Shown here: positions 24,523 through 62,597 of the stretch, one piece after another | Layout of the letters: every line of letters starts with the position of its first letter | How positions within the stretch are numbered: position 1 is the first letter of the stretch | Source of the DNA: a virus | Taxonomy: Duplodnaviria > Caudoviricetes | IMG/VR virus record: IMGVR_UViG_3300027971_000055 | Location: 1 to 63,600 of that record | Reading direction: 5' to 3' (one strand) | DNA length: 63,600 bases | Translations under genes and position numbers: made by a program | Notes under the pieces: generated by a model | What the model saw: only the letters and a program-made list of their open reading frames with translations | What the model was told of the DNA's origin: nothing | Databases searched by the model: none

Positions 24523-24852
24523 CTAGGCTGAGAAGGAGGAACCACACCCACACGTGCTAGTAGCTGCGGGATTTTTTATTTCAAAACCTGAAGTCATTAA
24601 AGAGGTGTTGTAACTTATAACAGCCCCGGTCAGGTATTGCATGCTATGTGCATCTACAAGTAAAGATATTTCATCTTGGTCTATTACAAAGTCATCTTCA
24701 TTTTGGGTATCATCAAAAGTAAAACCATATTGGAAACCAGAACAACCACCACCGGACACATAGATTCTTAGTTTAAGTCCACGTGCTTCTTCATCTGCTA
24801 ACAAGTCTTTTATTTTTACTATGGCAGAGCTATCTAGGGTTATCTGGTTCAA
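24523..24852 (-). CDS. erpA: Iron-sulfur cluster insertion protein ErpA (HesB/IscA family)
   Basis: LRIYVSGGGCSGFQYGFTFD ... NP.ATSTCGCGSSFS. Confidence 0.93.
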   Translation of the reverse strand: MNQITLDSSAIVKIKDLLADEEARGLKLRIYVSGGGCSGFQYGFTFDDTQNEDDFVIDQDEISLLVDAHSMQYLTGAVISYNTSLMTSGFEIKNPAATSTCGCGSSFSA

Positions 24853-25622: not shown

Positions 25623-26252
25623 GTGACACAGCAACCCATGCAAATGCAAAAAACCCAACAAAATCAAACATATAACGGTAAAGAAGTCGTTATAATACCC
25701 CATTTAGAAGAAAATATCTCTCTACCTAGAAACGCTCGTGCTGCATTACCCGAATTAAGTAACGAAGAAGAACTAGAAATGATGGTTAATACCATTAAAT
25801 TGATGTCAGACTTAACCGGACAGCCTATAGAAGCTACGCAAGAAGACATAGACGAGGCAAAAACGGTAATAAAAACCATTATTAAAGAACCTGAAACCAA
25901 ATTACAGCTTAAAAAGTACAAAAATTCAGTATTAGCTAGCTTAGCTGGGATGGTTGCAGAGTTAGATGCACAAGTAGTAGATGATTTAAAGGATTTAAAG
26001 ACGTTTGTTGTTAATGGTCTAATAAAAGAAGCAGCAACTGCAGAAAAATCTAAGGAAAGAATCACAGCACTACGTGCAATTGGTGAGGTAGATGGAGTAG
26101 ATGCATTTAAAAAGACTACAGAAGTCATACATAAGAACATGTCACTCGATGATATTGAAGAAAGACTAAGAACATTAGTAACTAGGATTGAAAAACGAAT
26201 ACAAGAAAAAGAACATAATGTAATAGATGCAGAAATAGTTAAAGATGAGTAA
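25623..26252 (+). CDS. Putative terminase small subunit
   Basis: Directly upstream of and overlapping terL; start uncertain. Confidence 0.55.
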   Translation: MTQQPMQMQKTQQNQTYNGKEVVIIPHLEENISLPRNARAALPELSNEEELEMMVNTIKLMSDLTGQPIEATQEDIDEAKTVIKTIIKEPETKLQLKKYKNSVLASLAGMVAELDAQVVDDLKDLKTFVVNGLIKEAATAEKSKERITALRAIGEVDGVDAFKKTTEVIHKNMSLDDIEERLRTLVTRIEKRIQEKEHNVIDAEIVKDE

Positions 26253-27805: not shown

Positions 27806-30304
27806 ATGGCAACTAATATAGATAAAAGTGTATACCAAGCTCCGATGGGATTAGATCAAGATCCACAAAACCCAGAAACGGATACGTTAAGTATTGAAAT
27901 TGAAAACCCAGATAGTGTAACGCTTGATGATGGTAGTATGGAAATTACTATTGTGCCTGGTAAAGAAGGCGATGATGAGTTTAATGATAACTTAGCAGAA
28001 GAGATGAACGAAGGTGAGTTAACTGAGTTGTCAGGTGATTTGCTTGGTGAGTTTGATGCTGATATTAATTCAAGAAAAGATTGGTTAACTACTTATGTAG
28101 ATGGCTTAGAGTTACTAGGTCTTAAAGTAGAAGACAGAACAGAACCATGGCCAGGCGCATGTAACGTATATCACCCTCTTATGACAGAAGCGCTTGTGAA
28201 GTTCCAAGCTGAAACTATGATGGAAACATTCCCCGCCGCAGGGCCAGTTAAAACTGTAATTATTGGCAAACAAACAAAAGAAAAAGAAGATGCAGCTGAA
28301 CGTGTAAAAGATGATATGAATTATCAGCTCACGGATATGATGCCCGAATATAGACCTGAACATGAGCGTATGCTATGGGGTCTTGGTTTATCAGGTAACG
28401 CATTTAAGAAAGTTTATTATGATCCAAACATGCAACGGCAAGTGGCAATGTATGTTCCAGCTGAAGATATTGTAGTACCTTACGGTGCCTCTAATTTAGA
28501 AACAGCTGAGCGTGTTACTCATGTGATGCGTAAAACTAAAAATGAATTACATAAACTACAAGTAGCAGGTTTTTATCGTGATGTAGATTTAGGTGAACCA
28601 TATTTAGATATTGATGAAGCTGAGAAAAAGATTGCAGAAAAACTAGGTTTTAATCCATCAGAAGATGATCGTTATAAGATTCTTGAAATACATGTTAATT
28701 TAGATTTAGAAAATGGTGATAGTGAAGATGGCATTGCATTACCTTATGTAGTAACAATTGAAAAAGGTACAGGCCTTATCTTAGCAATTCGTCGTAATTG
28801 GAATCCAGATGATGAGTTAAAATCTAAGCGTCAACATTTTGTACACTACGGTTATATTCCAGGCTTTGGCTTTTATTGCTTTGGCTTAATTCATTTGATA
28901 GGTGCTTTCGCCAAATCAGGTACTATGATCTTACGTCAACTTGTTGACGCGGGTACCCTATCAAACTTACCAGGCGGACTTAAATCTCGCGGGCTACGCA
29001 TTAAAGGGGATGACACGCCTATTGCACCAGGTGAATTCCGTGACGTAGATGTACCAAGTGGTGCTATTCGTGACAACATTTTAATGCTGCCTTACAAAGA
29101 ACCCTCACAAGTATTACAAAGTTTAATGAATGGTATTATTGAAGAAGGACGACGTTTTGCTTCTGCTGCTGATATGAAAGTATCAGATATGTCTGCTAAC
29201 TCTCCAGTGGGTACTACGTTAGCTATATTAGAAAGAACATTAAAAGTAATGAGTGCAGTTCAAGCACGTATTTACTACGCGATGAAGCAAGAGTTTAAAT
29301 TACTTAAAGGCATTATTCGTGACTACACACCGGAAGAGTATTCTTATGATCCTGAAGTAGGTGATCGCCGTGCTAAACAAGCTGATTATGATAATGTAGA
29401 TGTAATTCCAGTTAGTGACCCTAATGCTGCAACCATGTCACAGAAAGTAGTTCAGTATCAAGCTGTGATGCAAATGGCGCAATCTAACCCACAAATCTAC
29501 GACCAAGTAGAACTTAATAAACAAATGTTAGAAGTACTTGGTGTTAAGAATATTAGCAAACTTATACCATCATCCGATGACCAGAAACCAAAAGACCCTG
29601 TGTCTGAAAATATGAATATTATTAATGGTAAACCTGTTAAAGCATTTATTTACCAAGACCATCAAGCACATATTCAAGTACATATGACAGCCATGCAAGA
29701 TCCTAAGATTCTACAAATGGTAGGACAAAACCCTCAAGCACAAGCTATTCAAGCAGCAGCTATGGCACACATTAATGAGCACGTTGCGTTTGAATATAGA
29801 AAACAACTTGAAGAACAATTAGGCGTTCCATTACCTAAACCTGATGAAACATTACCAGAAGACATAGAGTTTGAATTATCTAAAGTTATGGCTGAAGCTG
29901 CTAAGAAACTTTCTGCTAAGTCTGCTTCTGAGGCTCAACAAGAACAAGCTCAACAACAGCAACAAGATCCAATTATCCAAATGCAACAACAAGAGCTACA
30001 GTTAAAAGCTCAAGATTTACAAATCAAACAGCAAAAAACTATGGCAGATATTCAATCAGATCAAGCTAGACTTGAACTTGATAAGATGCGTATTGAATCA
30101 CAAGAACGTATTGCTGGTGCTCAGTTAGGTGCTAATGCTGTAATGGATGATAAACAGCTAGAAGCTAAACAGTTGTTAGAAGGTACAAAAATTGGTATAG
30201 AAGCAGTTAGAGCTAATGATCAATTAGAGCACCAAAAACAACAAGCTGAAAAACAACAATCTATACAAATGCAACAAATGAATCAACAACAACCAAAGGA
30301 GTAG
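27806..30304 (+). CDS. Portal protein
   Basis: Follows terL; EPWPGAC, FKKVYYD, Gln-rich coiled-coil C-terminus. Confidence 0.88.
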   Translation: MATNIDKSVYQAPMGLDQDPQNPETDTLSIEIENPDSVTLDDGSMEITIVPGKEGDDEFNDNLAEEMNEGELTELSGDLLGEFDADINSRKDWLTTYVDGLELLGLKVEDRTEPWPGACNVYHPLMTEALVKFQAETMMETFPAAGPVKTVIIGKQTKEKEDAAERVKDDMNYQLTDMMPEYRPEHERMLWGLGLSGNAFKKVYYDPNMQRQVAMYVPAEDIVVPYGASNLETAERVTHVMRKTKNELHKLQVAGFYRDVDLGEPYLDIDEAEKKIAEKLGFNPSEDDRYKILEIHVNLDLENGDSEDGIALPYVVTIEKGTGLILAIRRNWNPDDELKSKRQHFVHYGYIPGFGFYCFGLIHLIGAFAKSGTMILRQLVDAGTLSNLPGGLKSRGLRIKGDDTPIAPGEFRDVDVPSGAIRDNILMLPYKEPSQVLQSLMNGIIEEGRRFASAADMKVSDMSANSPVGTTLAILERTLKVMSAVQARIYYAMKQEFKLLKGIIRDYTPEEYSYDPEVGDRRAKQADYDNVDVIPVSDPNAATMSQKVVQYQAVMQMAQSNPQIYDQVELNKQMLEVLGVKNISKLIPSSDDQKPKDPVSENMNIINGKPVKAFIYQDHQAHIQVHMTAMQDPKILQMVGQNPQAQAIQAAAMAHINEHVAFEYRKQLEEQLGVPLPKPDETLPEDIEFELSKVMAEAAKKLSAKSASEAQQEQAQQQQQDPIIQMQQQELQLKAQDLQIKQQKTMADIQSDQARLELDKMRIESQERIAGAQLGANAVMDDKQLEAKQLLEGTKIGIEAVRANDQLEHQKQQAEKQQSIQMQQMNQQQPKE

Positions 30305-33037: not shown

Positions 33038-33952
33038 ATGGCTATTTCACGCGCACAGCTCCTTAAAGAGCTCTTACCAGGACTAAATGCACTATTTGGT
33101 TTAGAATATAAACGTTACGGCGAAGAACATAAAGAAATCTACGAAACAGAGACTTCAGAACGTTCATTCGAAGAAGAAACAAAACTTTCAGGCTTTGCGG
33201 CAGCACCTGTTAAAAACGAAGGCAATGCCATCGCTTACGACAATGCTCAAGAAGCTTTCACTGCTCGATACAATCACCAAACTATCGCTCTTGGCTTTTC
33301 TTTAACAGAAGAAGCTGTAGAAGATAACTTGTATGACACATTATCAGCACGTTACACAAAGGCTTTAGCTCGCGCTATGGCTTACACAAAACAAGTTAAG
33401 GCTGCTGCAGTTCTTAATAATGGTTTCACTAACTCCGCTGCTTATTACGGTGGTGATGGTGTTCCATTGTTCTCTACCGCACATCCAACTGTTGGTGGTG
33501 GCACAAATAACAACACTCAAACAACTGCAACTGATTTGAACGAAACAGCACTAGAACAAGCTGTTATCAACATAGCTGCATGGACTGATGAGCGTGGTCT
33601 TTTAATTGCTGCTCAACCACGTAAGTTAATAGTTCCACCAGGTAATCAGTTCGTTGCAACTCGTTTGCTCGAAACTGAACTTCGTGTTTCTACAGCTGAC
33701 AATGATATCAATGCTCTTAAAAATAATGGTTCAATCCCAGAAGGATATTCAATTAACCATTACTTAACAGACACTGATGCATACTTCTTAACAACTGATG
33801 TACCTAACGGCATGAAACACTTTGTGCGTACTCCGTTATCTACTTCTATGGATGGCGATTTTGACACAGGCAATGTTAGATACAAAGCTCGTGAGCGTTA
33901 TTCATTTGGTTGGTCAGATCCTCTCGGTATGTGGGGTTCACAAGGCGCTTAA
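33038..33952 (+). CDS. Major capsid protein
   Basis: MAISRAQLLKELLPGLNALFG...RYKARERYSFGWSD; strong RBS; followed by terminator. Confidence 0.9.
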   Translation: MAISRAQLLKELLPGLNALFGLEYKRYGEEHKEIYETETSERSFEEETKLSGFAAAPVKNEGNAIAYDNAQEAFTARYNHQTIALGFSLTEEAVEDNLYDTLSARYTKALARAMAYTKQVKAAAVLNNGFTNSAAYYGGDGVPLFSTAHPTVGGGTNNNTQTTATDLNETALEQAVINIAAWTDERGLLIAAQPRKLIVPPGNQFVATRLLETELRVSTADNDINALKNNGSIPEGYSINHYLTDTDAYFLTTDVPNGMKHFVRTPLSTSMDGDFDTGNVRYKARERYSFGWSDPLGMWGSQGA

Positions 33953-33979
33953 TTGCGTTTTGAAACAATGTACCAAGTT

Positions 33980-34007
33980 AAACCCAGTTTCGGCTGGGTT
34001 TTTCTTT
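33980..34007 (+). terminator. Rho-independent terminator
   Basis: AAACCCAGT-TTCG-GCTGGGTTT plus T-rich tail. Confidence 0.88.
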
Positions 34008-34065
34008 ACCTGCTATTCATGGTTTTACGTATTCCACAGGCAAATCTTCGGAGTAATATGTAGTT

Positions 34066-34082
34066 ATACACACGGTGTGTAT
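34066..34082. promoter_or_regulatory. 17-bp palindrome upstream of pqqA
   Basis: ATACACAC-G-GTGTGTAT. Confidence 0.5.
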
Positions 34083-34101
34083 TAAATTTAAAGGAAAAAT
34101 T

Positions 34102-34173
34102 ATGTGGACAACTCCAGCAGCAACTGAAATGAGATTTGGCTTTGAAGTGACTATGTACGTAATGAACAAGTAA
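34102..34173 (+). CDS. pqqA: Pyrroloquinoline quinone precursor peptide PqqA; not in ORF track
   Basis: MWTTPAATEMRFGFEVTMYVMNK: MW..P....R.GFEVTMY signature with E-xxx-Y; AAGGA RBS; own terminator. Confidence 0.96.
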   Translation: MWTTPAATEMRFGFEVTMYVMNK

Positions 34174-34197
34174 TTAGATATTACATTGTTTGCATTT

Positions 34198-34220
34198 AAG
34201 GGCTTTTGTAGCCCTTTTTT
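34198..34220 (+). terminator. Terminator of pqqA
   Basis: AAGGGCT-TTTGT-AGCCCTT plus T tract. Confidence 0.85.
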
Positions 34221-34232
34221 GTTGTATAATAC

Positions 34233-34260
34233 TTGCAAATAGTATGTATTCATGTATTAT
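34233..34260 (+). promoter_or_regulatory. Putative promoter TTGCAA-16-TATTAT
   Basis: Lies between the pqqA terminator and the structured leader. Confidence 0.5.
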
Positions 34261-34268
34261 TTGAATAT

Positions 34269-34340
34269 CCGGGTATATCCGGTTTATTAGACTGTCCCGG
34301 CAGACGCATACAAGACTAATAGACTTAACTTTGTATGGAG
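34269..34340 (+). ncRNA. Candidate structured (double-pseudoknot) 5' UTR RNA
   Basis: Four interleaved complementary segment pairs, the last touching the SD sequence. Confidence 0.55.
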
Positions 34341-34349
34341 AAATATATT

Positions 34350-34829
34350 ATGTCATCAACAACCTTTTCGGGTCCAGTGACGTCTACAGCCGGTTTTATT
34401 ACAGGTACAGGCGTTAATTCAACAGTTACAGCATCAACATTAACAGTTACAGCAGATACTTACAACGGTCAAACTATCGGTTTAAGTCGCGCAGCAGGTA
34501 TTACAGTAACCCTCCCAGCAGCTACAGGCACAAATGCCGTATATAAATTTTTGGTTGAAACAACAGTTACATCTAATAGTTATAAAATTCAAGTGGCTAA
34601 CGCAACAGACGTAATTAGTGGCACATTAAATGTTGCCGGTACTACAGGCACTCCGTTTGGCACTCTTCCAGCTTCTGACACAATCACAATGAATGGCACT
34701 ACACAAGGCGGCGTTATAGGTTCATACGTTGAACTTACTGATGTTGATGCAGGTATCTTTGCTATTACTACTGGCGGTCTTATTGGCTCTGGCACAGTAG
34801 TTACACCATTCTCTGCAGCTGTAAGTTAA
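34350..34829 (+). CDS. Putative virion structural protein (Thr/Gly-rich)
   Basis: MSSTTFSGPV start after GGAG; TLPAATGT motif. Confidence 0.7.
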   Translation: MSSTTFSGPVTSTAGFITGTGVNSTVTASTLTVTADTYNGQTIGLSRAAGITVTLPAATGTNAVYKFLVETTVTSNSYKIQVANATDVISGTLNVAGTTGTPFGTLPASDTITMNGTTQGGVIGSYVELTDVDAGIFAITTGGLIGSGTVVTPFSAAVS

Positions 34830-40476: not shown

Positions 40477-40932
40477 TTGGCAATCTCACAAACACTAGCA
40501 ACAAGCTTTAAAGTTGAAATTTTAGATGGTATACATAATTTTGGTGTGGGCGTTATTCGTGCGTCTACTGCAGCGGATACTTTTAAAATAGCCCTATATT
40601 CAACCTTAGCTACGCTTGGCTCTACAACAACAGTATATACAACACAGGATGAAGTGACAGGTACAGGCTATACAGCAGGTGGTAATACATTAGTTATATC
40701 TCAAGTTCCAACATCAACAAGTACTGAAACAACAGCATGGTTAAACTTTGATAATTCTAGTTGGACTACTGCAAGCTTTTCAGCAGATGGTGCTTTGATA
40801 TATAATAGTACTCAAGGTAATAAAGCAGTCGCAGTATTAAACTTTGGTGGCACTAAAACCGCTACCGCGCAAACTTTTACAGTAACATTCCCAGCATCTA
40901 CATCGGACGCTGCAATTATAAGGATTACATAA
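40477..40932 (+). CDS. Tail-associated structural protein
   Basis: TTG start after AAGGA; SFK.E.L.G.H, FKIALY, GYTAGG, ALIYN. Confidence 0.75.
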   Translation: MAISQTLATSFKVEILDGIHNFGVGVIRASTAADTFKIALYSTLATLGSTTTVYTTQDEVTGTGYTAGGNTLVISQVPTSTSTETTAWLNFDNSSWTTASFSADGALIYNSTQGNKAVAVLNFGGTKTATAQTFTVTFPASTSDAAIIRIT

Positions 40933-42360
40933 ATGACAACAGTATCTTCTGTGTTTTCAGAAGCACCGCAAGTTAAAGTAAGTAATGCAAGACCGTTAGA
41001 AAAAGATTTATATAAGATGATGTGGGACATACCAGAGTATAGAGCAGTTGCTCCTGGTGAACTTATATCACAAGAATTTTTGAATCAAGCTAGACCTCCT
41101 AAGGGGGCGTCAGTATTAGACTTAGGATGTGGCACTGGACGTGGCTCTCTTAACTTAGCTTTTTTCGGTGGCTTAAATGTCACTATGGTTGACTTCGCAG
41201 ATAATTGTTTAGACGAAGATATTCGACCGATGTTAGAAACACAGAAGCATGCTATGCGATTTGTAGAGGCAGACTTATCTCAACCCCTACCTGTTACAGC
41301 AGCTTATGGATTTTGTACGGATGTGATGGAGCATATTAGACCTCATCACGTAGATAGAGTAATAGATAATTGTTTGGCTGCTTGTCAGCATGTTTTTTTT
41401 CAGATTGCTACTGAAGATGACATCATGGGTAAGATAGTAGGACATAAGCTTCATTTAAGCGTACACCCATATGAGTGGTGGCTAAAGAAATTTATTGATA
41501 GAGATTGTATTATTCATTGGTCTAAAGAAGCCCCAGGATATTGTTTATTCTATGTAAGTGCTTGGATGAAAGGTGAAGACGTTGTTGACGCTGGAGTGCT
41601 TAATACAGACGATGAAACGATTACAGCTAACGTAAAACACAACATTCAAAGGGATTTTATGCAGGTTCAACCGCACCCTACGAATGACCAAGAAGTTATG
41701 ATTGTGGGCGGGGGGCCATCATTGAATGAGCACCTTGAAACTATTAGACAAAAGAGGGCTGATGGTGTTAAACTAATCACAATTAATGGGGCTTATAAAT
41801 GGTGCCTAGATAATGGACTAACGCCTTCTGCTATGGTTATGGTAGATGCTAGACCTTTCAACGCACGATTTACTCAACCCGTAGTAGACCATTGTAAGTA
41901 TTTTATTGCTTCTCAATGTGATCCTACTACGTTTGATGGGCTTCCAAAAGACAGAACTTATATATGGCACACAAGCACGGAATTGCTAAATGACATATTA
42001 GCTAAACATTATAAAACATGGTATCCGGTTCCAGGAGGATCTACAGTCCTTTTAAGAGCCATACCGTTATTTAGAATGTTAGGATTTAAACAGTTTCATC
42101 TCTTTGGATGTGATTCTTGTTTAGATGAAAAAGAGGTTCACCATGCATATGAACAGCAAGAAAATGATGGACAGCCAATCATACCCGTAAACGTGGGCGG
42201 GAAAATATTTAGCTGCAATCCGTGGATGATTTCTCAAGCACAAGAATTTATTGATTTGATTCGTATGCTAGGGGATGAAATTGAATTAAACATTTACGGC
42301 GGTTTACTCCGTCATATTTTAGAAACAGGCGCTTCAAACGCCGACATTAAGGAGAATTAA
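40933..42360 (+). CDS. Class I SAM methyltransferase - DUF115/Maf-like fusion
   Basis: VLDLGCGTG and DVMEH N-terminal; IVGGGPSL, GGSTV and LFGCDS C-terminal. Confidence 0.8.
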   Translation: MTTVSSVFSEAPQVKVSNARPLEKDLYKMMWDIPEYRAVAPGELISQEFLNQARPPKGASVLDLGCGTGRGSLNLAFFGGLNVTMVDFADNCLDEDIRPMLETQKHAMRFVEADLSQPLPVTAAYGFCTDVMEHIRPHHVDRVIDNCLAACQHVFFQIATEDDIMGKIVGHKLHLSVHPYEWWLKKFIDRDCIIHWSKEAPGYCLFYVSAWMKGEDVVDAGVLNTDDETITANVKHNIQRDFMQVQPHPTNDQEVMIVGGGPSLNEHLETIRQKRADGVKLITINGAYKWCLDNGLTPSAMVMVDARPFNARFTQPVVDHCKYFIASQCDPTTFDGLPKDRTYIWHTSTELLNDILAKHYKTWYPVPGGSTVLLRAIPLFRMLGFKQFHLFGCDSCLDEKEVHHAYEQQENDGQPIIPVNVGGKIFSCNPWMISQAQEFIDLIRMLGDEIELNIYGGLLRHILETGASNADIKEN

Positions 42361-42361
42361 A

Positions 42362-42820
42362 ATGGCTGCATCAGCATGGCAATTATATAATTATGCTAAG
42401 CGATATATAGGTAACGGAACAATTACACTAGGCGCTGGCGTGTTTAAAATGTTATTAGCAAGAAGTGCAAGTAACGCATCAACATTTACCATAAGTACTT
42501 ACGCTCAGATTACGAATGAAATTTCTGCTACAGGTGGTTATGCAACAGGTGGTAAAAACTTAGTACCAGCAACAGCTTCTTGGACAGTAGGCGCTTCAGC
42601 AAAACAAATGAAGTTCACAATGTCTACAGTAGGTTTAGCGTTTACAGCTTCTGGTGCTTCATTGACTAACGTTAAATACGCGATCATTCGTAACTCAACT
42701 GGCGCTCTTGCTGGTAAGTTATTATGTTTCTGCCAATTATCTAGTACTCAATTTACTGTAACGTCACCAAATACATTGACAGTTTTACCTGCTGCTACCG
42801 GCATCTTTACTCTAACTTAA
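42362..42820 (+). CDS. Tail-associated structural protein, paralog of 40477..40932
   Basis: FKMLL...NEI...GGYATGG..L, similar length and layout. Confidence 0.7.
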   Translation: MAASAWQLYNYAKRYIGNGTITLGAGVFKMLLARSASNASTFTISTYAQITNEISATGGYATGGKNLVPATASWTVGASAKQMKFTMSTVGLAFTASGASLTNVKYAIIRNSTGALAGKLLCFCQLSSTQFTVTSPNTLTVLPAATGIFTLT

Positions 42821-47843: not shown

Positions 47844-48293
47844 GTGAATGTATCAAAAGCTGCTATCGCTCTTATCAAACATCACGAGGGTGTGCGTAGT
47901 CGTCCCTATCGTTGCCCTGCAAACTTGTGGACTGTTGGTGTGGGTCACCTTATCGGCGATGGTAAATCTTTGCCTGATTCTTATAACAGAACTTTTACAA
48001 CGGAAGAAATAGATGCGCTCCTTATACGGGATCTCAATAGATTTGAACGTGGAATATCTAAGATGTTACCTAACGTGCCTCTTAGACAATGTGAATTTGA
48101 TTGCTTGGTATCTTTTGCCTTTAATCTTGGTCTGGGTACATTTCAAAGATCAACACTCCGTCAAGCGCTGCTTCGCGGAAATAAGACGCAAGCTATGGAA
48201 TCATTAGTGAAATATTGTCGCGCAGGTGGTAAAATACTCAGAGGTCTACAAACTCGTAGATTAGACGAAAAAGCACTTTTTGAAGGTAAATAA
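47844..48293 (+). CDS. Endolysin, GH24 lysozyme
   Basis: HEG.R..PY.C....WTVGVGH, FNLG, GL..RR..E. Confidence 0.92.
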   Translation: MNVSKAAIALIKHHEGVRSRPYRCPANLWTVGVGHLIGDGKSLPDSYNRTFTTEEIDALLIRDLNRFERGISKMLPNVPLRQCEFDCLVSFAFNLGLGTFQRSTLRQALLRGNKTQAMESLVKYCRAGGKILRGLQTRRLDEKALFEGK

Positions 48294-55409: not shown

Positions 55410-58400
55410 ATGGCATTAATAGACGATTTACGCGCTGAATATCCTGGCCGGTACAGGACAATGACCGATAAGGAAATAGCCGACCAATTATATAAAGATC
55501 ACTATGCTACCGAAATGCCCAAGATTTCTTTCTATAAGCAGTTAGGTATAGACGTTCCCGAATCAAGTTATGCTGAGATAATAGGAAGAGATTTACCATT
55601 AGCTGGCGCACAGGGTGTAGTAGGTCTATATGAAGGTGTTAAAGGTCTTACAGGGTTTGTCCCATTATCTAAAGGTAAAATTCCTAAAGCAATAGAGAGT
55701 GCAGAAAAATCTGTTTTTGGTGGCTCAGCTTCAGATTTACAACAATATCTAGAGTCCTTAAAATCAGAAGGACAACAAATGGTATCGCAAGGTGCCGCAG
55801 AAATTCCCTCAACAGGTAACTTATTACGTGACGCTACTGGGCAACTTATATATGCTGGACAAAACCCACAACAAATTGGACAAATAGTTGCCCAGTCATT
55901 ACCTTCTACTTACGGAGGAGCATTAATTGGTAGGGGTATAAGTGCAACTGGAGCTAAATTTGGTAAGGACATAACTCCTATTACTGCAGCTGCATCGGGT
56001 GAAGGTACGTTAGCTGCTGGTTCTGGTTTAGAATCCGTCCGTCAACAAACTGAAAATAAAGAAGTTACAACCCCTCAACAACTTATAACTGCATTTAGTG
56101 GTTATATGACTAATAAACTAGGTAGGCTTGGTAATAGGGCTGCTAAATACTTAGGTGTTGATGATATGGATGTTATATTAGTACGTGGTAATATGGGTTC
56201 TACACCTGCAGCAAATCAAAAAGCACAAAGTAAATTAGTAGCTGGATTAAAATCAGCACTTAGTGAATCAGTGTTTGAAGAACTTCCACAATCAACACAA
56301 GAACAAATATCACAAAATATAGCTTTAGGTAGACCTTACGATGAAGGTGTTGCAGAACAAATGGCTGCGGGTATAATTGGTGGTGCGGGAGCAGGGTTTG
56401 GGTTTGGTACATATAATCAGTATAAAGTAAATAAAGCATTAGATAATATGCCACCGCCCCCAACAGACGTAGACGCAGAGCCACCAGGTATAGATATAGA
56501 AGTACCAAAAACAGACACAAAGAAAAATGCCAAAACAAGAAAAGATTTAATAGATTCTATAGAAGATGCAGAAACAAAAAAATCATTAGAAGAACTTTTA
56601 GGTAAGAAAGGGAAACCAAGTGGAACTCAACAGACAACAGCTGGAACTAGCGATGAAGTATCTGGAGGATCAGATGATGGAACTACCGGAGGAACTAAAA
56701 AACCTGTCGGAGGTGGAGTGGATGGGGCTGCAACTGATGAACTCACAGATAAGACTGGAGAGGGAAGAAGCGACGTTGCATTAGAAACAATTACTACAAA
56801 CGACGTAGGTAAACCTTTTCCGTCAACAGGTCAAGCACACAAATTTCGTAGAGATAATAAACTTGAAAACTTATATTCTGTTATTACACAAGCTGACGGC
56901 ACTATTGCTCTTGTGCCAAAGATACCAGTTACAGAACAAAAACCCCTAGTAACTAAAACTAAAAAACCTGCAGTGACAAAAGAACCCGAAGTAGCTGCAG
57001 AAGAAACAGAAGAAGATATACCAGATGAAGAAATTGGTTGGGAAAAGTTTGAAGAAACTAAACCTGACGGTACTATAACTTCGGGGTTTAGAAGAAAACA
57101 AACTACTACTCAGAAAGATGCCCCAGTAGTTATATCAGCTAAGACGCCTAAATCTACCGAAGTATTAAAATCAGAAGCGGAACTTACAGAAGCTGATAAA
57201 GCCGATTTAGAACAAGAAGAAGCTGATGAAGAAGCCGCAAGTCAAGCTAGAATAGATGAAGCTAATCAAGGTGGATTTGAAGACTTACCTGATTACGTTA
57301 AAATAGGTTCTAAATTAGCATCTAAATCCCCAATAGTACAAGCAGAAGAATCTGATCCTAATGCTAGTACTGAATCTAAACGACAAGAAGCTAGAAGATT
57401 AGCGGTTAAACATGCCGCATTTGATCAAGCGATGGATGAGTTTGATACTGTAAGTACTGAAGATTTTGACGCAAAATTAAAAGAATTAGCTAATGAAAAG
57501 ATGGAAGAACTAAAAAAAGAGATGCGGGATAAAGGAGCTACTGAAGAAGAAATTAATAATAAACTTAGTACTAAAAAATTCTCTATTAATAAGCCATTAG
57601 AGTTTATAAAAGGTTCTACTCAAGCACAACGTTTTAGTAACTATTATAAAGAGTTTAATAAATTTTTAGGTACGAAGAAATTAAAACCTAGAAGAATTAA
57701 ACAAGCAACTACTCGCGAAGAATTTACAGAAACTCTATCTAAACAAGAAAGAAAATTATTTAATAAAGCATACTCTAGCTATATAACTACACAAGTTAAA
57801 TCTTTAAAATCTGGTGTTGCTTCTGTTGATGAAACGGAATCTAATGAAGCTGCATTATATAGAAAACTACAAGACGAAATAGAGCTAGTAAAAAAGAAAA
57901 AAGGTAGTCAAGCTAAAGTAGATAAGTATAAAGCAGATTACGCGATAGCTCGTGCAAAAGCACAAAAAACTTCTTTAAGTAGACAAGTTGTTGAGACAGA
58001 TACATCTGCACTATCTGATAAAGTTGCTAACCTAGAACAAGCTATTAAAGACGGCGAGAATGAAATCAAGTCTATTAAAGCTGCTAAAAAAATTAAAGAT
58101 AAAGCAGTGCAAATTAAAGGCGTTCAAACACAGATTAATAAAGATAGGGTTGAATTAAAACTTGCTAAAACAGAGTTAGATACGGCTCAAAAAACTACTA
58201 CAGTATTAGGTGCACCGGGAAGATACACAAATATATCTACTGAAGAAACTAGAGCAACTGAAATATTAACTAAACAAAATAAAAAGAATAAGAAAAAAGA
58301 AAAGGCTATACAAGAAGGAAATCCTGAAGAAGTATTAGAGGTTCTTGATGATGAGACTGAAGAATTAGCTAAATCTATTATTGTTCAAGATAAGAAAAAA

Positions 58401-61400
58401 ACGGAAGAAGAAGCTAAAGAGAAAGCTAAAAAACAACCTAAGATTACTGTTGTTGGTAAACTAAATATGATTGTGTCTAAGAGTATTACTCAGGGCAAAA
58501 ACATAATTGAAACATTAGATGATTTATATGATAGTAAGAATAAAGAAAAAGCTCGTAGCTACCAACGCACAGCCTTGTTGTTTAGCGAAGTATTAAGCAA
58601 GCTTCAAAATAAAGGATATGATTTACCTAAAGTAGTATTTGGTCCAGTACCTAATGATCGTCCTGGTATGTATAATCCAGAAACAAATACTATTACTATT
58701 AATGATACTTCAGAAGTAGAGTACGGCAGGGTATTAGTGCATGAAACACTACACTATTTATTAGACCATATTGTAGAAGAGTATCAAAAAAGTCCTAATA
58801 GCAATTTGCTATCCCCGTCTCAAAAAGTATATCTAGGAGCTTTATTAGAATCTTATAACTATGCAAGACAAAATGCAGCTTCATTAGTTGAAAAAAATAA
58901 ATTTGATGCATCATTAAAAGATTTTGCAGAAGAAATCAAGACTATGGAGTTTAAAGAGTTCCTAGCTGAAGCCGTAGAAGGAATGCAGTTTTCAATTGCA
59001 TTGGGTAAATTAGAACCTATGCCTGGTCGTGTATTACCTTTTCTACGACAGTTAGCTAGAGATATTGCGGGTATGTTAGGCTTTAGACTTGAGCATAGAT
59101 TGCCTACTACAAAAGATAAACCGGTACAAGCATTTATATTAGAAGCAGTGTTAAACGATATTGAAAGTATTCTTACAGGTGAAGACTATGTGGCACCTAA
59201 TCCATTATTTAGATCTGGCGACGTATCGTTTGCTAGAAAAATAGATTTATCTGAAGATGCTGAAGAAGCTAGTAAAGCTGAAAGGTCTTTTGATGATTTA
59301 GTAGACAATGATAAGAGCACAATGTTAGAGCGCGGAGTTAAGTCTACAGTACAAAAAATGACTGAAACTTTTTCTAGTGGTCAAAATTTTATAGATGAAG
59401 TAGCTACTACTTTTTCTAATGAGAGGTTTGTATTAGAAAGACTCCAAGAAAACATGGACAGATCAGGGGCTATTAGCTATGCCGAAGATTCATTCAACAA
59501 TTTCTATGATTATATATCTACAGCTTTTGGTAAAGCACAGTGGTATTTGAAACAAAAAATAGAAAACCCAAGAAAAACTTATATTATAACTTTATCTAAT
59601 ATTGCAAACGCTAAAGGAGTATCTAATTCTAAAGCAGCTACAATACTTAAATATTATGCAATTGCATTTCATGCGCCTGAAAGACGTAAAACAAAATGGT
59701 TACTAAACGTACCACTAGAAAAATTAAATAAAATAAAATTTAAAAGTACTTTATTTGGCACTGTTGAAGACACCCCTGCAAATATAAGAGAAAGATTTTT
59801 TGACACTATTTCATCTGATGTTATAGCTAAATTATCTGAAGAGCAAAGAAAATATATAGCTGAGTCTTTAAAAAATGATTTAATTAGATTAGTTAACACA
59901 AAAGGCGCTATTACTGCAACAGGTTATAGCCCAGCGGGATATAAAAAAACAAACATAACAGAAGCTGATTATAACGTTATTGAAGACTTAAGTTTTAATG
60001 ATGAGCAAGTATGTAAAAATAAATATATGGCTGAATCATCAGAAATGAGAACTTTAGTACAACAATTTTTTGCTGCTAAAAAACAATTACAAGACGCAAC
60101 TACAGAATTAAATAGAATGGCAGGGTACTGGAGTAATGCTACTGATGCTATTGTTGAATTCTATGGATGGAAAAATTACTCTCCATTTAAAGTTAGGCCT
60201 GGAGATAGAGCAGCATTTAAATTAAATATAGAAGGGACTGCATTAGGACGTACAGGTAAAGATTATCCGGGTTCTAGATTTGAAGGTAGCAGTGCTGATG
60301 TAGAAAACCCAGTAAACCAAGTGTTGGTAGAAGCTGCACAATCTGCGGCAAGAGCTGGTGCTGACGGTTTAATGAGATCGATTATAAACGCAGTAAACCA
60401 AGGTTATTTAAAAGGTGTTTTAATAGATGGCAAGGGCAATGCTCGTAAAAAAACTGAACTAAATAAGCCTACTTATACCTTCCAAGAAAGATATACAGGA
60501 AAAGTAGATGAAGCAATATTAAAAAGACCTGACATATTATATGCATATAACAAAGATGGTTCTATGGATTTAGTAAAAATTACTGATTTAAAACAATTAG
60601 AAGCTATTCGTAGAACTTATTCTATTAATAATGAAAGCATAATAAATTCTGCAGTTCAGTTTTTAAATAAAGGTACAAGTGCCATGGGTCAAGGACATAC
60701 CAGATTAAACCCAGGTTTTGCTCCATACAATTTTGTACGTGACATTTTAACAAACGTTGGTATTGTATCCATGAAAGAGAACCCATTAGTTGGAGCTAGA
60801 ATTATTTCAGCAGTTGTAACAGAGATAATAGCTAAGGGAGGTATAGCTAAGGCAGCTAGATTCTCATTCTTATTCCATAACAACAGACTTGATGATATTG
60901 AAAAACTAGCAGAAAAAGATGGATTTTATAAATCATTATCAGAATATGGTAAAAAAGGTGGTAATGTTTCGGTAGTACAAGGGTTAAGCGCAGCTAGTGC
61001 TATGGAAATGCTATCTAAAGAATTAGATAAAAGTTTAACGCTACGTTCTAAAGATGACATACTTAAATATTTTGACATGTATAATTCTATGTTTGAGTTT
61101 GGCGCTCGTGTAGCAGTATACAGAGTTATGAAACGTCATTTCCAAGATCAAATGTCTAAAGAATTAAATGCATTGCCTAGCCAAGTAGAACAAGCGGCTA
61201 TTTTTAAAGCAGTTGCATATACAAAAAATTTAGCAAACTTTGAAGAACGTGGTTTATATACTAAACAATTAGGTACTTACTTTATGTTCTTTGGAGCAGG
61301 TGCTGTTGGTGCTAGACAAGCATTAAAAGCTTTAAGTCCTGCTTGGAGAAAGTATGAAGCAGTAGCTAATACGCTGCCCGAAAATATTCAAAAAGACCCA

Positions 61401-62597
61401 GTTAAAATGGCTAAATTTAAAAAACGATTTACGGAACAAAAATTTTGGAGTCGTACAGTTGCTGCGGCAATGATTGGAATAGGGTATAGTTTATGGCAAT
61501 TAATGCATTTGATGGCAGGATTAGACGATGATGACAAAGATCAAGAAGGAAGAAATAAAATAGCCACGGATGATTCTCGTAGATGGACTAGAAACGCTAG
61601 AATTTATTTAGGGTATGATGAAAAAACTCATAAAGATGTAATGGGTAACATACCTTGGGGATTTGGTCCTAATGCATTTATGGCTTTTGGTGCTCAAATA
61701 GCGGCGTATACTTCAGGCGAAGGGGTAGAATTAAAAGATTTTGCAGTTAATACTATGCATATTGCAATGGATTCATACCTACCTATTCCTACAACAGGCA
61801 TTGACCCTACAGATAACACCACTGCATTTCTTGTTGATATGATAACTCCAAGCATAGCTAAACCATTAAATCAATTTGCTATGAATAGAAACTCATTAGA
61901 TCAACAAATCTATAGAAGCAGTTATAACAAATACTCTTCAGCTTATTCAGGTAATGATTCTATTCCTAGATACTTTAAAGATGCATCTGAATGGGCATTT
62001 GAAGTGTCTGATGGAAAAGTAGTAATGTCCCCAGACGCAATGTATTTTTATGCTAATAACTATGCTGACGGTATCTCTAAAATAGTAGAAAGTTTATATG
62101 GAGGTATTTCAGTACTAAAAGGAGATAAGTATTTTGACCTTGAAAAAGATGCCTTTATATTTGATAGCTTTTTAAATACTACTTCTAATCTTGATGCTAG
62201 AAGGTTTGATACATTAAAAAATAATTTAACTGAAAAATCTAAAATATATGAGGATATGAAACTACGTAATCCACAACAAGCATATAAATATGCAAATATC
62301 ATTAATCCTAATCTAGAGGTAAAATTAAAAGTATTAAATTATTTTAATAATAAAGCATTAAAGCCAGTAGAAACAGGCGCTAATCAAGTAAGGAATAATA
62401 CATTATTAAATTCAAAAGAAAAATCTACTCTTTTATATAGAAATAGATTAGAAAAAAATCACATTAAAAAAGGTGTATACGATACTATTAAATCAATAGA
62501 TGATTTAGGAAAAGCAGAACTTAATGGATTGTTAGAGATGATTGCAGAAGACGAGGCAGCTATGGACTTACGCAACGCGCCAGACTCTAACCCCTAG
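55410..62597 (+). CDS. Large ejection / polyvalent protein (zincin HExxH, LPD38-like C-terminus)
   Basis: 2395 aa; GMYNPETNTITI...LVHETLH; IPWGFG and P....PL C-terminal region. Confidence 0.8.
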   Translation: MALIDDLRAEYPGRYRTMTDKEIADQLYKDHYATEMPKISFYKQLGIDVPESSYAEIIGRDLPLAGAQGVVGLYEGVKGLTGFVPLSKGKIPKAIESAEKSVFGGSASDLQQYLESLKSEGQQMVSQGAAEIPSTGNLLRDATGQLIYAGQNPQQIGQIVAQSLPSTYGGALIGRGISATGAKFGKDITPITAAASGEGTLAAGSGLESVRQQTENKEVTTPQQLITAFSGYMTNKLGRLGNRAAKYLGVDDMDVILVRGNMGSTPAANQKAQSKLVAGLKSALSESVFEELPQSTQEQISQNIALGRPYDEGVAEQMAAGIIGGAGAGFGFGTYNQYKVNKALDNMPPPPTDVDAEPPGIDIEVPKTDTKKNAKTRKDLIDSIEDAETKKSLEELLGKKGKPSGTQQTTAGTSDEVSGGSDDGTTGGTKKPVGGGVDGAATDELTDKTGEGRSDVALETITTNDVGKPFPSTGQAHKFRRDNKLENLYSVITQADGTIALVPKIPVTEQKPLVTKTKKPAVTKEPEVAAEETEEDIPDEEIGWEKFEETKPDGTITSGFRRKQTTTQKDAPVVISAKTPKSTEVLKSEAELTEADKADLEQEEADEEAASQARIDEANQGGFEDLPDYVKIGSKLASKSPIVQAEESDPNASTESKRQEARRLAVKHAAFDQAMDEFDTVSTEDFDAKLKELANEKMEELKKEMRDKGATEEEINNKLSTKKFSINKPLEFIKGSTQAQRFSNYYKEFNKFLGTKKLKPRRIKQATTREEFTETLSKQERKLFNKAYSSYITTQVKSLKSGVASVDETESNEAALYRKLQDEIELVKKKKGSQAKVDKYKADYAIARAKAQKTSLSRQVVETDTSALSDKVANLEQAIKDGENEIKSIKAAKKIKDKAVQIKGVQTQINKDRVELKLAKTELDTAQKTTTVLGAPGRYTNISTEETRATEILTKQNKKNKKKEKAIQEGNPEEVLEVLDDETEELAKSIIVQDKKKTEEEAKEKAKKQPKITVVGKLNMIVSKSITQGKNIIETLDDLYDSKNKEKARSYQRTALLFSEVLSKLQNKGYDLPKVVFGPVPNDRPGMYNPETNTITINDTSEVEYGRVLVHETLHYLLDHIVEEYQKSPNSNLLSPSQKVYLGALLESYNYARQNAASLVEKNKFDASLKDFAEEIKTMEFKEFLAEAVEGMQFSIALGKLEPMPGRVLPFLRQLARDIAGMLGFRLEHRLPTTKDKPVQAFILEAVLNDIESILTGEDYVAPNPLFRSGDVSFARKIDLSEDAEEASKAERSFDDLVDNDKSTMLERGVKSTVQKMTETFSSGQNFIDEVATTFSNERFVLERLQENMDRSGAISYAEDSFNNFYDYISTAFGKAQWYLKQKIENPRKTYIITLSNIANAKGVSNSKAATILKYYAIAFHAPERRKTKWLLNVPLEKLNKIKFKSTLFGTVEDTPANIRERFFDTISSDVIAKLSEEQRKYIAESLKNDLIRLVNTKGAITATGYSPAGYKKTNITEADYNVIEDLSFNDEQVCKNKYMAESSEMRTLVQQFFAAKKQLQDATTELNRMAGYWSNATDAIVEFYGWKNYSPFKVRPGDRAAFKLNIEGTALGRTGKDYPGSRFEGSSADVENPVNQVLVEAAQSAARAGADGLMRSIINAVNQGYLKGVLIDGKGNARKKTELNKPTYTFQERYTGKVDEAILKRPDILYAYNKDGSMDLVKITDLKQLEAIRRTYSINNESIINSAVQFLNKGTSAMGQGHTRLNPGFAPYNFVRDILTNVGIVSMKENPLVGARIISAVVTEIIAKGGIAKAARFSFLFHNNRLDDIEKLAEKDGFYKSLSEYGKKGGNVSVVQGLSAASAMEMLSKELDKSLTLRSKDDILKYFDMYNSMFEFGARVAVYRVMKRHFQDQMSKELNALPSQVEQAAIFKAVAYTKNLANFEERGLYTKQLGTYFMFFGAGAVGARQALKALSPAWRKYEAVANTLPENIQKDPVKMAKFKKRFTEQKFWSRTVAAAMIGIGYSLWQLMHLMAGLDDDDKDQEGRNKIATDDSRRWTRNARIYLGYDEKTHKDVMGNIPWGFGPNAFMAFGAQIAAYTSGEGVELKDFAVNTMHIAMDSYLPIPTTGIDPTDNTTAFLVDMITPSIAKPLNQFAMNRNSLDQQIYRSSYNKYSSAYSGNDSIPRYFKDASEWAFEVSDGKVVMSPDAMYFYANNYADGISKIVESLYGGISVLKGDKYFDLEKDAFIFDSFLNTTSNLDARRFDTLKNNLTEKSKIYEDMKLRNPQQAYKYANIINPNLEVKLKVLNYFNNKALKPVETGANQVRNNTLLNSKEKSTLLYRNRLEKNHIKKGVYDTIKSIDDLGKAELNGLLEMIAEDEAAMDLRNAPDSNP

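Follow-up and report, generated by a model that had tools for sequence, protein, structure and literature searches.

The bacteriophage genome described here carries an intact gene for PqqA, the precursor peptide of the cofactor PQQ, and sequence comparisons make it probable that this is a selected auxiliary gene that supplies the PQQ precursor stoichiometrically. The genome, hereafter the window (the whole stretch of 63,600 nucleotides (nt) that was analysed), is a complete virus record of 63.6 kb with terminase, portal, capsid and tail genes, its capsid being HTVC023P/027P-like. In PqqA, the Glu and Tyr of a Glu-X-X-X-Tyr motif become PQQ: PqqD binds the peptide, PqqE cross-links it and maturation yields the cofactor, and one peptide is spent per PQQ, which methanol dehydrogenases require. 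Methylophilaceae (OM43, LD28 and relatives) are major methanol consumers in coastal seas and lakes.

The pqqA gene lies at 34102..34173 on the plus strand (ATG at 34102, TAA at 34171-34173), and the open reading frame (ORF), stop included, yields the 23-amino-acid (aa) peptide MWTTPAATEMRFGFEVTMYVMNK. A preliminary description, made from the DNA letters alone, had proposed a 72-nt pqqA within a box at 34008-34220; the gene was borne out at the narrower coordinates, whereas the box spans the whole cassette. The profile search that it had suggested established the identity of the peptide, which matched the full length of Pfam PF08042 (PqqA; positions 1-19 of 19, 40.3 bits, cut-off 21.1, E 3e-10) and of TIGR02107, the NCBIfam PqqA equivalog (positions 1-21 of 21, 38.8 bits, cut-off 20), about twice the curated cut-off for both profiles. 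Glu16 and Tyr20 are located within F-E-V-T-M-Y, and Trp2 and Pro5 of the W-x-x-P leader motif are also present; all four residues were invariant across the unique sequences (86 viral and 105 host), bearing in mind that codons 13-19 were demanded by the search pattern. The peptide is the commonest Methylophilaceae form, identical to 52 host copies in our sample, and matches to the PqqA core pattern came almost entirely from Methylophilaceae records, in line with the peptide type first proposed. At the nucleotide level, the best host copy agreed at 67 of 72 nt, and Arg11 is encoded by AGA, a phage-type codon.

The gene forms part of a cassette of approximately 280 nt that consists of a leader with a palindrome, a Shine-Dalgarno (SD) sequence, pqqA and a terminator. 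Directly upstream lies the major capsid protein gene (33038..33952, plus strand; phrog_371, major head protein, E 1.6e-21; PF10124, Mu-like gpT, 35.6 bits), which has more than 601 relatives in IMG/VR and ends in an intrinsic terminator found by a terminator scan at 33980..34001 (plus strand; 9-bp stem followed by a T-run; -16.2 kcal/mol, z -2.8). The leader contains a perfect 17-bp palindrome with 8-bp arms, ATACACACGGTGTGTAT, at 34066..34082, and the SD sequence AAAGGA was read at 34090..34095 on the plus strand, 6 nt ahead of the ATG. The cassette's own intrinsic terminator (34198..34222, plus strand) comprises a 7-bp GC-rich stem at 34198-34216 and the run TTTTTT (-15.1 kcal/mol, z -3.1). 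Thus the ribosome-binding site, palindrome and terminator of the preliminary description were all recovered, as was the placement of pqqA between the capsid terminator and a structural-block gene.

As an RNA hairpin the palindrome is weak (-5.1 kcal/mol, z -0.5, not significant alone). Relatives have palindromes of differing sequence at the same leader position, and an inverted repeat of at least 6 bp was found there in 63 of 119 viral pqqA copies, compared with 22 of 114 control windows and 18% of shuffles; the element could be a 5′ stem-loop of the RNA or a protein binding site. Alignment of the window with two filled sites (L258, from the G005 assembly, and L259) and one empty site (L276) revealed a conserved leader at 34279..34349 (plus strand), which filled and empty sites have in common and which sets the right-hand boundary of the inserted segment. 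We considered the palindrome and this downstream leader as repeated phage promoters and rejected both, each being single-copy in the window; a scan of the stretch that separates pqqA from the capsid terminator (34002-34101) revealed no sigma-70-like promoter. Beyond it, the structural block continues with a gene at 34350..34829 (plus strand) that belongs to the variable 'TTFSGPV' family. Its longest ORF opens at 34335, and the likely start is 34350: conservation sets in at this ATG, and homologues in relatives begin M-x-x-TTFSGPV. The comparison with host pqqA loci that had been called for was run: similarity is limited to approximately 34078-34185, that is, the SD sequence and coding sequence, and stops approximately 20 nt 5′ of the ATG and approximately 10 nt 3′ of the stop codon.

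The cassette is a sporadic occupant of a variable hotspot behind the capsid gene, not a fixed trait of the lineage. Of 70 close relatives identified through their capsid, only 4 carry pqqA, and none of the five complete relatives has it anywhere, so the gene is dispensable for this phage type. The empty site aligns with the window on both sides of the cassette and defines the insertion, and the post-capsid site in relatives holds many different inserts, including endonuclease-like ORFs. Where pqqA is present, it lies downstream of the capsid gene on the same strand at all 17 capsid-linked viral loci, and its coding sequence is unchanged in the alignment of filled sites while the flanks diverge. 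On the capsid tree, the distribution of pqqA requires 4 changes; with shuffled labels the average was 12.4, and none of 500 shuffles came out as low. The gene is vertically inherited within capsid subclades. The preliminary interpretation stands for a PqqA gene in a real phage, the absence of pqqB-E and the peptide type, and gives way where it implied a fixed feature of the lineage. An Fe-S carrier (PF01521) encoded in the window was considered separately as a partner of pqqA and rejected for want of a consistent link: it is absent from all five pqqA-less relatives, but 4 of 5 other large contigs with pqqA and all five cultured methylophages examined lack it as well.

Beyond this lineage, intact pqqA genes were found in the cultured methylophages P19250A, Venkman, MEP301, MEP401/402 and Melnitz (4 records) and in MW202481. 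All six of the peptides tested from this set pass PF08042 (37.0-43.3 bits); the ORFs show 73-100% peptide identity, each has an SD sequence and most have a hairpin downstream, and Venkman and MW202481 share the AGA codon with the window. The carriers belong to unrelated families (siphovirus-like, Zobellviridae podovirus and Kyanoviridae myovirus), and the gene variously lies in the early region in antisense orientation, leads an operon or adjoins a tRNA ahead of the baseplate genes. The cassette runs antisense to the adjoining genes in Venkman, MEP301 and MW202481; these three phages must therefore transcribe it independently, and read-through cannot be the general mode of expression. In total, pqqA recurs in at least seven unrelated phage backbones, including every cultured methylophage lineage. 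No cultured methylophage record that we examined has the gene annotated correctly, since it is either left out or placed on the opposite strand; we have not found in print that intact, unannotated pqqA runs through all these lineages, although supplementary gene tables could list it.

A search of IMG/VR with degenerate DNA patterns recovered pqqA from at least 120 viral contigs. All 120 of the matches listed were intact PqqA ORFs, a count that is biased because the pattern demanded an intact 7-codon core, and at 59 of these 120 loci the flanks did not resemble those of any known methylophage. That the gene is intact across these viral contigs is likewise something that we have not seen published. 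None of the 120 matches listed had pqqB-E nearby, whereas with these queries pqqB was detected at 26 of 125 host loci. For the window itself the absence of pqqB-E noted at the outset was upheld: tblastn gave chance matches only (E 1.9 or worse), and PHROGs and Pfam gave none. Matches in 'Acinetobacter phage MD-2021a' were discarded, since that locus carries ppk and pqqBCDE and is therefore bacterial DNA; the record was left out of the phage count and used only as the source of the pqqB-E queries.

The peptide is under purifying selection in phages to the same degree as in hosts, a result that we have not found in print. Calculated over the 12 codons outside the ascertainment pattern, pN/pS was 0.23 for 86 unique phage sequences and 0.26 for 105 unique host sequences, values that rest on short, saturated codons (pS approximately 0.5) and non-independent sequences, and conservation of the phage peptide follows the host pattern codon by codon. 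Superimposed on this is a synonymous difference: AGA encodes Arg11 in 36 of 119 viral copies but in 0 of 132 host copies, and the AGR (AGA or AGG) form occurs in at least 120 viral contigs and in none of 361 Methylophilaceae-family genomes (CGN control, 61 of 61). This phage-only Arg codon was likewise not found in print. In the window genome itself AGA is the favoured codon, accounting for 198 of the 440 Arg codons that 18 large ORFs contain. Diversity among the AGR copies matches that among host copies (0.172 versus 0.178), and the AGR copies include many peptide variants, on which grounds we rejected a single recent clone spreading among phages; the data fit either an old pool or recurrent amelioration. 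At the sequence level, these comparisons show pqqA to be a long-standing resident of phage genomes.

These results bear on the view that pqqA is a neutral passenger, namely recently captured host DNA that landed in a hotspot, is tolerated as tiny and stays intact by recombination with host copies. The sporadic distribution among relatives and the variety of inserts at the post-capsid site are what this view would lead one to expect, and hosts offer 3-12 near-identical templates, so that gene conversion could keep the ORF intact without benefit to the phage. However, the phage-only AGR codon argues against frequent gene conversion, and its specificity together with the diversity of AGR copies indicates long independent evolution in phages rather than fresh capture. 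A pN/pS as low as that of hosts, inheritance within capsid subclades and recurrence in unrelated backbones also speak against a passenger, and we consider this explanation unlikely.

Alternatively, pqqA might be functional in another way, the peptide or its mRNA titrating PqqD, PqqE or a regulator of pqq or methanol oxidation, or PQQ being overproduced to serve redox protection or other quinoproteins. The recurrent leader palindrome, with its sequence varying between phages, hints at regulation of its own, and approximately 12 of the 120 listed viral copies are of non-Methylophilaceae types, including two from capsid relatives of the window (L025 and L031), which points to uses of pqqA beyond methanol oxidation. 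A 2026 survey, as far as its accessible text goes, files viral pqqA/D/E under phosphate solubilisation (PMC13188868). Against this, the peptide is identical to the host substrate and so cannot act as a dominant-negative variant, its host-like conservation is that expected of a normal substrate, and we obtained no evidence for any alternative target; we regard such a role as quite improbable.

A third possibility is that pqqA mimics an attachment site, forming the attP core of a temperate phage that integrates into host pqqA and rebuilds the gene. Short host-identical genes are classic integration targets, the Venkman, MEP301 and MW202481-type cassettes lie near recombination genes (ERF, YqaJ), and MEP301 is described in the accessible text of its report as having a resolvase-domain protein (PMC8024684). 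Yet PHROGs and Pfam detected no integrase or recombinase in the window, and the phage shows no lysogeny genes. The whole ORF is retained with start, SD sequence and stop rather than a 3′ core, the gene also occurs in the myovirus Melnitz and the podoviruses MEP401/402, and synonymous divergence from hosts (at best the 67 of 72 nt given above) would spoil an exact core. Moreover, the 124 host pqqA loci have no phage-like proteins alongside, setting aside one locus that is itself phage DNA (L236), and so far no host genome has shown a prophage of this type lying between split or duplicated pqqA copies. We judge attachment-site mimicry very improbable.

The junctions between pqqA and the phage flanks were found intact in assemblies other than the window. 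DNA contigs from two independent runs of different studies (X2 and X4) bridge both junctions without a single difference (X2 records 14 and 15; X4 record 22), linking the capsid gene to pqqA and pqqA to the leader beyond it; X4 record 23 is also among the bridging contigs. The same arrangement is found in the G005 assembly (90% identity) and in L259. Accordingly, the concern that the locus might be chimeric was not upheld, and the idea that a cluster of host pqqA reads was wrongly joined into the phage contig has a next-to-negligible chance of being right: sequencing depth does spike over 34107-34177 in DNA runs, because host and other phage pqqA copies map there too, and such repeats can mislead assemblers, but the bridging contigs (unless both runs are the window's own sample), the relatives and the uniform arrangement at capsid-linked loci all contradict it.

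Contigs of public RNA runs were inspected over the same region, and none covered pqqA in its phage context. One run (X8) has contigs on the capsid gene and on the downstream gene and none over 33965-34248, although contigs cannot show absence; because DNA contigs also break near 33906-33910, the ends of the RNA contigs are assembly breaks and not transcript ends. The sole RNA cover comes from another run (X16), in which the contig over 34107-34177 has host-type letters (34132 A>C and 34134 A>T) and a loose end in unlike sequence, and therefore represents a host or other pqqA copy. In the window, the cassette would be transcribed either from a promoter of its own or by read-through of the capsid terminator.

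An AT-rich freshwater member of the Methylophilaceae is a plausible host, as had been proposed for an AT-rich methylotroph: the GC content is 36.7% in the window, 35.0% at the nearest host locus and 36.5% in Ca. Methylopumilus, and the runs holding the window stretch are freshwater or lake samples. The G005 assembly was examined as a host source and rejected; its phage pieces are 85-97% identical to the window, it contains no pqqA besides the phage's and no pqqE, and therefore gives no host link. The sampled hosts have 3-7 pqqA copies, mostly far from pqqE: in a Ca. Methylopumilus genome all three are more than 100 kb from pqqE, and in three other hosts most copies are orphans. The classical adjacency to pqqBCDE, which the window pqqA lacks, is thus not universal in hosts either. 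Published work, in its accessible text, reports hosts with 3-12 pqqA copies and a single set of the other pqq genes (Beck 2014, PMC4109929) and, in a methylotroph, peaks of pqqA transcript that coincide with PQQ synthesis (PMC9851590).

This multiplication of pqqA in hosts that keep one copy of each enzyme provides the dosage logic for the reading that we favour, in which the phage gene is a selected supplier of PQQ precursor. The phage copy would keep the precursor pool filled during infection, while the catalytic, reusable PqqB/C/D/E of the host would process the peptide and go on making PQQ for the periplasmic methanol dehydrogenases XoxF/MxaF, so that energy supply might be sustained through a long latent period to the benefit of the phage. 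The phage would take only pqqA because it is tiny and is the sole part of the pathway that is consumed stoichiometrically. PQQ is stable and tightly bound, however, so that extra precursor might not matter within one infection cycle.

If phage pqqA works in this way, C1 oxidation would be tuned at the single consumable step of cofactor synthesis, by a gene that, at 72 nt, would be one of the smallest metabolic genes possible in a virus. The gene falls below the usual ORF cut-offs and is hence a concern for annotation, and the AGA/AGG phage-only allele lets viral and host transcripts be separated in metatranscriptomes. Because pqqA is present in cultured phage-host pairs, its role is directly testable, although the OM43 medium given in the accessible text of the Melnitz paper contains 1 nM PQQ, which could mask a pqqA phenotype (PMC9004378).

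A viral pqqA, suspected at the outset to have been reported before, has indeed been described in VP_266 from Lake Baikal, for which a Methylophilaceae host was predicted and a boost to methanol oxidation was proposed (Coutinho 2020, Microbiome, PMC7678222). Both are freshwater viruses with a phage-borne PqqA gene; VP_266 is T4-like and also encodes a methanol dehydrogenase, whereas the window, at 63.6 kb, has pqqA alone in a bounded post-capsid cassette. The accessible text of that paper contains no report of recurrence in cultured methylophages, of presence/absence polymorphism, of selection or of a phage-specific codon (PMC7678222). Chromosomal orphan pqqA genes of Methylophilaceae resemble the window in having the same peptide in a small stand-alone unit with SD sequence and terminator away from pqqBCDE, but they differ in lacking the capsid and structural flanks and the AGA codon at Arg11, which is absent from the 361 host-family genomes. 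The pqqA genes of cultured methylophages are likewise intact ORFs, but their backbones, positions and orientations differ from those of the window. Morons are autonomous accessory cassettes between conserved phage genes, with classic cases in temperate phages; the window cassette similarly adds one small gene, with a terminator of its own, between two conserved late genes, is present or absent among otherwise syntenic relatives and has a known empty site, but no promoter of its own was identified in the window and the phage, unlike those of the classic cases, shows no lysogeny genes.

A textbook parallel in logic is cyanophage psbA, which encodes D1, a fast-turnover part of the host energy system that is carried by phages with demonstrated expression and benefit. 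By analogy, and tentatively, since we give it somewhat less than an even chance, pqqA may be to methylophages what psbA is to cyanophages: a near-universal, phage-adapted mini-cassette supplying the host's energy enzyme, once infection has begun, with the consumable precursor of its cofactor. The phage copies would then form a gene pool of their own, marked by AGA/AGG and AT-shifted synonymous sites, long present in phages, moving between unrelated backbones and repeatedly inserted behind the capsid gene of the present lineage. If so, methylotrophy in general would be limited by the supply of PQQ precursor, a bottleneck that phages turn to their advantage, and in metagenomes a viral pqqA could act as a host-guild marker for methylophages. 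The likeness is one of analogy and not homology, PqqA being a 23-aa RiPP precursor and the psbA product a membrane protein; in both cases, only the consumable part is carried, by unrelated phages of one host guild and with phage-type sequence signatures.

The window record is a complete linear virus (63,600 bp; CheckV completeness 100%), in which PHROGs annotation assigns to the minus strand a replication block (primase/helicase, helicase, DNA polymerase and nucleases; 384–25525) and to the plus strand a structural block, with the large terminase at 26245, the portal at 27806, the major capsid protein at 33038–33952, the endolysin at 47844 and, at its end, a 2,395-aa ORF (55410–62597) that matches only phrog_30335 (unknown function) and, near its C-terminus, LPD38 (PF18857). 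The small pqqA gene that a preliminary description had proposed behind the capsid gene is real: an intact plus-strand ORF runs from an ATG at 34102 to a TAA at 34173 and encodes MWTTPAATEMRFGFEVTMYVMNK. It is preceded by a Shine–Dalgarno (SD) sequence, AAAGGA (34090–34095, plus strand, by sequence reading), and by a perfect 17-bp leader palindrome (34066–34082) that occurs once in the window, and it lies between two plus-strand terminators located by terminator scan and folding, that of the capsid gene (33980–34001) and a second one (34198–34216) followed by a T-run. The peptide scored above the cut-offs of both the Pfam PqqA profile (40.3 bits; cut-off 21.1) and TIGR02107 (38.8 bits; cut-off 20). 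As the preliminary description had stated, pqqB–E were not found in the window by PHROGs, Pfam or tblastn; PHROGs and Pfam also revealed no PQQ-dependent dehydrogenase or integrase, and the window contains no tRNAs.

Two further genes were noted. A 475-aa protein inside the structural block (40933–42357, plus strand) combines a SAM-methyltransferase domain with an MptE-like domain (PF01973, 83 bits), is flanked by two phrog_644 paralogues (40477–40932 and 42362–42820) and possibly serves in the modification of the virion or of a surface. An A-type iron–sulphur carrier (PF01521, 70 bits; phrog_17776) is encoded in the early region (24526–24852, minus strand); it is missing from all five complete relatives without pqqA, but its presence in one of five other large pqqA-carrying contigs and in none of five cultured methylophages shows no consistent tie, and it was rejected as a pqqA partner.

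A chimeric joining of pqqA to phage flanks is contradicted by DNA contigs that bridge both junctions, assembled from two public sequencing runs of different studies, X2 and X4, one of which might be the source of the window itself. The capsid–pqqA junction is spanned with 0 differences by X2 record 14 (33889–34164) and X4 record 22 (33896–34164), and the junction between pqqA and the downstream leader by X2 record 15 (34146–34305) and X4 record 23. The same arrangement is repeated in IMG/VR relatives and, at approximately 90% identity, in a separate genome assembly, G005; the window stretch was also found in freshwater or lake runs from 18 studies. G005 (loci L236 and L254–L258) is labelled as a gammaproteobacterial strain and contains contigs of a phage 85–97% identical to the window, as well as fragments of another, more remote relative. 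Because it contains no pqqE and no pqqA besides the phage copy, these contigs are probably mis-binned.

Host pqqA genes were collected with the core E-M-R-F-G-F-E-V-T-M-Y, one genome per species, yielding at least 125 loci. Among the matches listed, nearly all loci belong by title to Methylophilaceae or unclassified relatives, and the window peptide agrees residue for residue with the most frequent host form (52 matches), which bears out the Methylophilaceae type given in the preliminary description. Best nucleotide identity to a host gene among these matches is 67/72, and the likeness is restricted to approximately 34078–34185, comprising the SD, the coding sequence and a few bases beyond; the sole exception, L236, is a fragment of a window-like phage that was binned into the assembly G005. 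The GC content of the window (36.7%) is close to that of the nearest host locus (L194, 35.0%) and of a Ca. Methylopumilus locus (36.5%). These results support, short of proof, an AT-rich freshwater member of the Methylophilaceae as the putative host.

In the window, pqqA forms an accessory cassette, and the site 3′ of the capsid gene in which it lies is a variable hotspot. Alignment of the window, G005 and the pqqA-carrying relative L259 with an empty site (L276), which has nearly the same downstream gene and lacks pqqA, set the insertion limits at approximately 33958–34235; to the right, a conserved leader (approximately 34279–34349) is common to filled and empty sites. Between the window and L259 the pqqA coding sequence is almost identical, whereas the spacer and both terminators diverge. 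Other relatives (loci L260–L338) carry differing 'TTFSGPV'-family proteins, endonuclease-like ORFs and others at this site, including GIY-YIG-like ORFs (for example, L264, L315 and L322) and ORFs with an H-Y-F-T-G-x-P-C motif (for example, L263, L270 and L321). Among the matches listed, 17 viral loci found via pqqA have a window-like capsid gene (70–98% amino acid identity), and in 17/17 pqqA lies 3′ of it on the same strand, at 48–186 nt in 12 and 543–1,860 nt in 5. Capsid relatives number more than 601 IMG/VR contigs; from the best 80 (83–91% identical), 70 had at least 300 nt 3′ of the capsid gene, and pqqA was present within 900 nt in 4 of these and absent from 66, in none of which a loose motif revealed a decayed copy. 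Five near-complete relatives (99–100% complete) had no pqqA anywhere.

A capsid tree was built from 89 rows (13 pqqA-positive, with four contigs entered twice, 66 negative and 10 unknown); its carriers fall in the window's 4-row clade (support 95), in a 7-row clade with six carriers (support 97) and as two singletons. The tree needs four pqqA changes, at least two of them forced by well-supported branches, against a mean of 12.4 in label shuffles, 0/500 of which were as low as four; the cassette was thus inherited within subclades, yet gained or lost more than once. Two IMG/VR capsid relatives (L025 and L031; 70–82% amino acid identity across the portion present) encode a different PqqA, of a non-Methylophilaceae type (..TYEKIRLGFEVTMYFKNS), 1.4–1.9 kb past the capsid gene, which suggests a separate acquisition from another host group within the same phage family.

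The gene recurs in unrelated phages that share this host guild. A tblastn search of the window peptide against 50,697 phage records returned 12, of which two 'Acinetobacter phage' records proved to be bacterial DNA with pqqBCDE and were dropped. The remaining records (KX815270, MT375522, MW452941, OP830906/7, MZ577095-8 and MW202481; loci L002–L007) place pqqA at a convergent junction in P19250A (100% peptide identity), antisense within the early region in the freshwater podovirus MW202481 (96%), MEP301 (91%) and Venkman (91%), in MEP401/402 (83%) at the head of an operon (MEP401), and beside a tRNA ahead of baseplate genes in the four Melnitz records (73%). All six distinct peptides passed PF08042 (37.0–43.3 bits), and none of the ten records annotates pqqA on the right strand: it is unannotated in P19250A, Venkman, MEP301 and MEP401/402, and overlapped by an opposite-strand 'hypothetical protein' in Melnitz and MW202481. 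In IMG/VR, the pattern G-F-E-V-T-M-Y matched at least 120 loci; among the matches listed, 120/120 have intact 23–25-aa PqqA ORFs, approximately 108 of Methylophilaceae type, and the flanks resemble known methylophages or the window in 61 and are unlike them in 59. No pqqB–E were found in the flanks of these 120, but this alone is no proof of viral contigs, because host orphan copies lack them too (same queries, host loci among the matches listed: pqqB 26/125, pqqC 15/125, pqqD 9/125).

Viral and host copies among the matches listed have equal per-codon variability and, for the 12 codons that the search pattern left free (1–8 and 20–23), a pN/pS of 0.23 (86 unique viral sequences) versus 0.26 (105 unique host sequences). 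Codon 11 (Arg) differs between the two sets: among the matches listed, 119 viral copies, leaving out one locus with ambiguous letters, use CGT 63, AGA 36, CGC 16, CGA 3 and CGG 1 times, and 132 host copies CGT 118 and CGC 14 times. AGA occurs in window-like (9/17), Venkman-like (4/8), P19250A-like (3/5), MEP301-like (2/10), MW202481-like (1/18) and unclassified (17/59) backbones among these matches. By direct scan, the AGA/AGG (AGR) form was found in at least 120 viral contigs and in 0/361 Methylophilaceae-family genomes; the CGN control was found in 61/61 sampled family genomes. Among the matches listed, AGR copies cover many peptide variants, are about as diverse as host copies (0.172 versus 0.178) and are enriched in TAT at Tyr19 (49/89 versus 12/114 in hosts). 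This pattern speaks against a recent capture, contamination by host DNA and frequent gene conversion; it looks like long residence in AT-rich phage genomes with the peptide under purifying selection. The window's own genes favour AGA (198/440 Arg codons).

The window palindrome folds into only a weak RNA hairpin. But for a single change it is retained in G005; at the same place L259 carries another palindrome, with 6-bp arms, and P19250A has an 8-bp one. Among the matches listed, which are not independent samples, inverted repeats of at least 6 bp at −60 to −9 occur in 63/119 viral copies (control windows 22/114; shuffles 18%), ending mostly 15–25 nt 5′ of the ATG, and in 31/125 host copies (controls 13/117). 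Structure kept without sequence favours a putative RNA element, for example, a 5′ stabilizer.

Each PQQ consumes one PqqA, a peptide that is acted on by PqqD and PqqE. Methylophilaceae have been described, in the available text of Beck et al. 2014 (PMC4109929), as carrying 3–12 pqqA copies but a single set of the remaining pqq genes. Similarly, we found 1–12 copies in each of 61 evenly sampled family genomes (12 in one of them), and four host genomes, each with one pqqE, had 3, 4, 7 and 5 copies; in Ca. Methylopumilus universalis (1.27 Mb), each of the three copies is over 100 kb away from pqqE. Some genomes have tandem pairs or pairs within approximately 1 kb (L149/L150, L175, L184 and L205/L206). 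In a PQQ-producing methylotroph, two of five pqqA copies are reported to peak in expression at the fastest PQQ synthesis (PMC9851590, available text). Phages, for their part, repeatedly carry an intact pqqA of clear identity, in viral context and under selection. Its product would supply a consumable substrate to the host's PQQ pathway, the role already put forward in the preliminary description and the best-supported reading of the sequence data. In the window, pqqA could be transcribed by read-through from the capsid gene: the two genes point the same way, and 34002–34101 yielded no sigma-70-like promoter. Read-through cannot be a general rule, since the cassettes of Venkman, MEP301 and MW202481 run antisense to the genes around them. 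No contig of the public RNA runs covered pqqA in its phage context.

Phage-borne pqqA as such is already in print, as had been suspected: the available text of Coutinho et al. 2020 (PMC7678222) describes a T4-like virus from Lake Baikal that encodes PqqA and proposes the same role, and that of a 2026 reservoir study (PMC13188868) lists viral pqqA among phosphorus-cycling genes. The portions covered of the literature on viral and methylotroph pqqA, PQQ and methylophages, including the Melnitz, MEP4xx, MEP301 and Venkman papers, contain no mention of pqqA in cultured methylophages or of a viral pqqA polymorphism or phage-type allele. The wider pattern across phages, which we did not find in print, is a more interesting result than the window's gene and is directly testable in culture.
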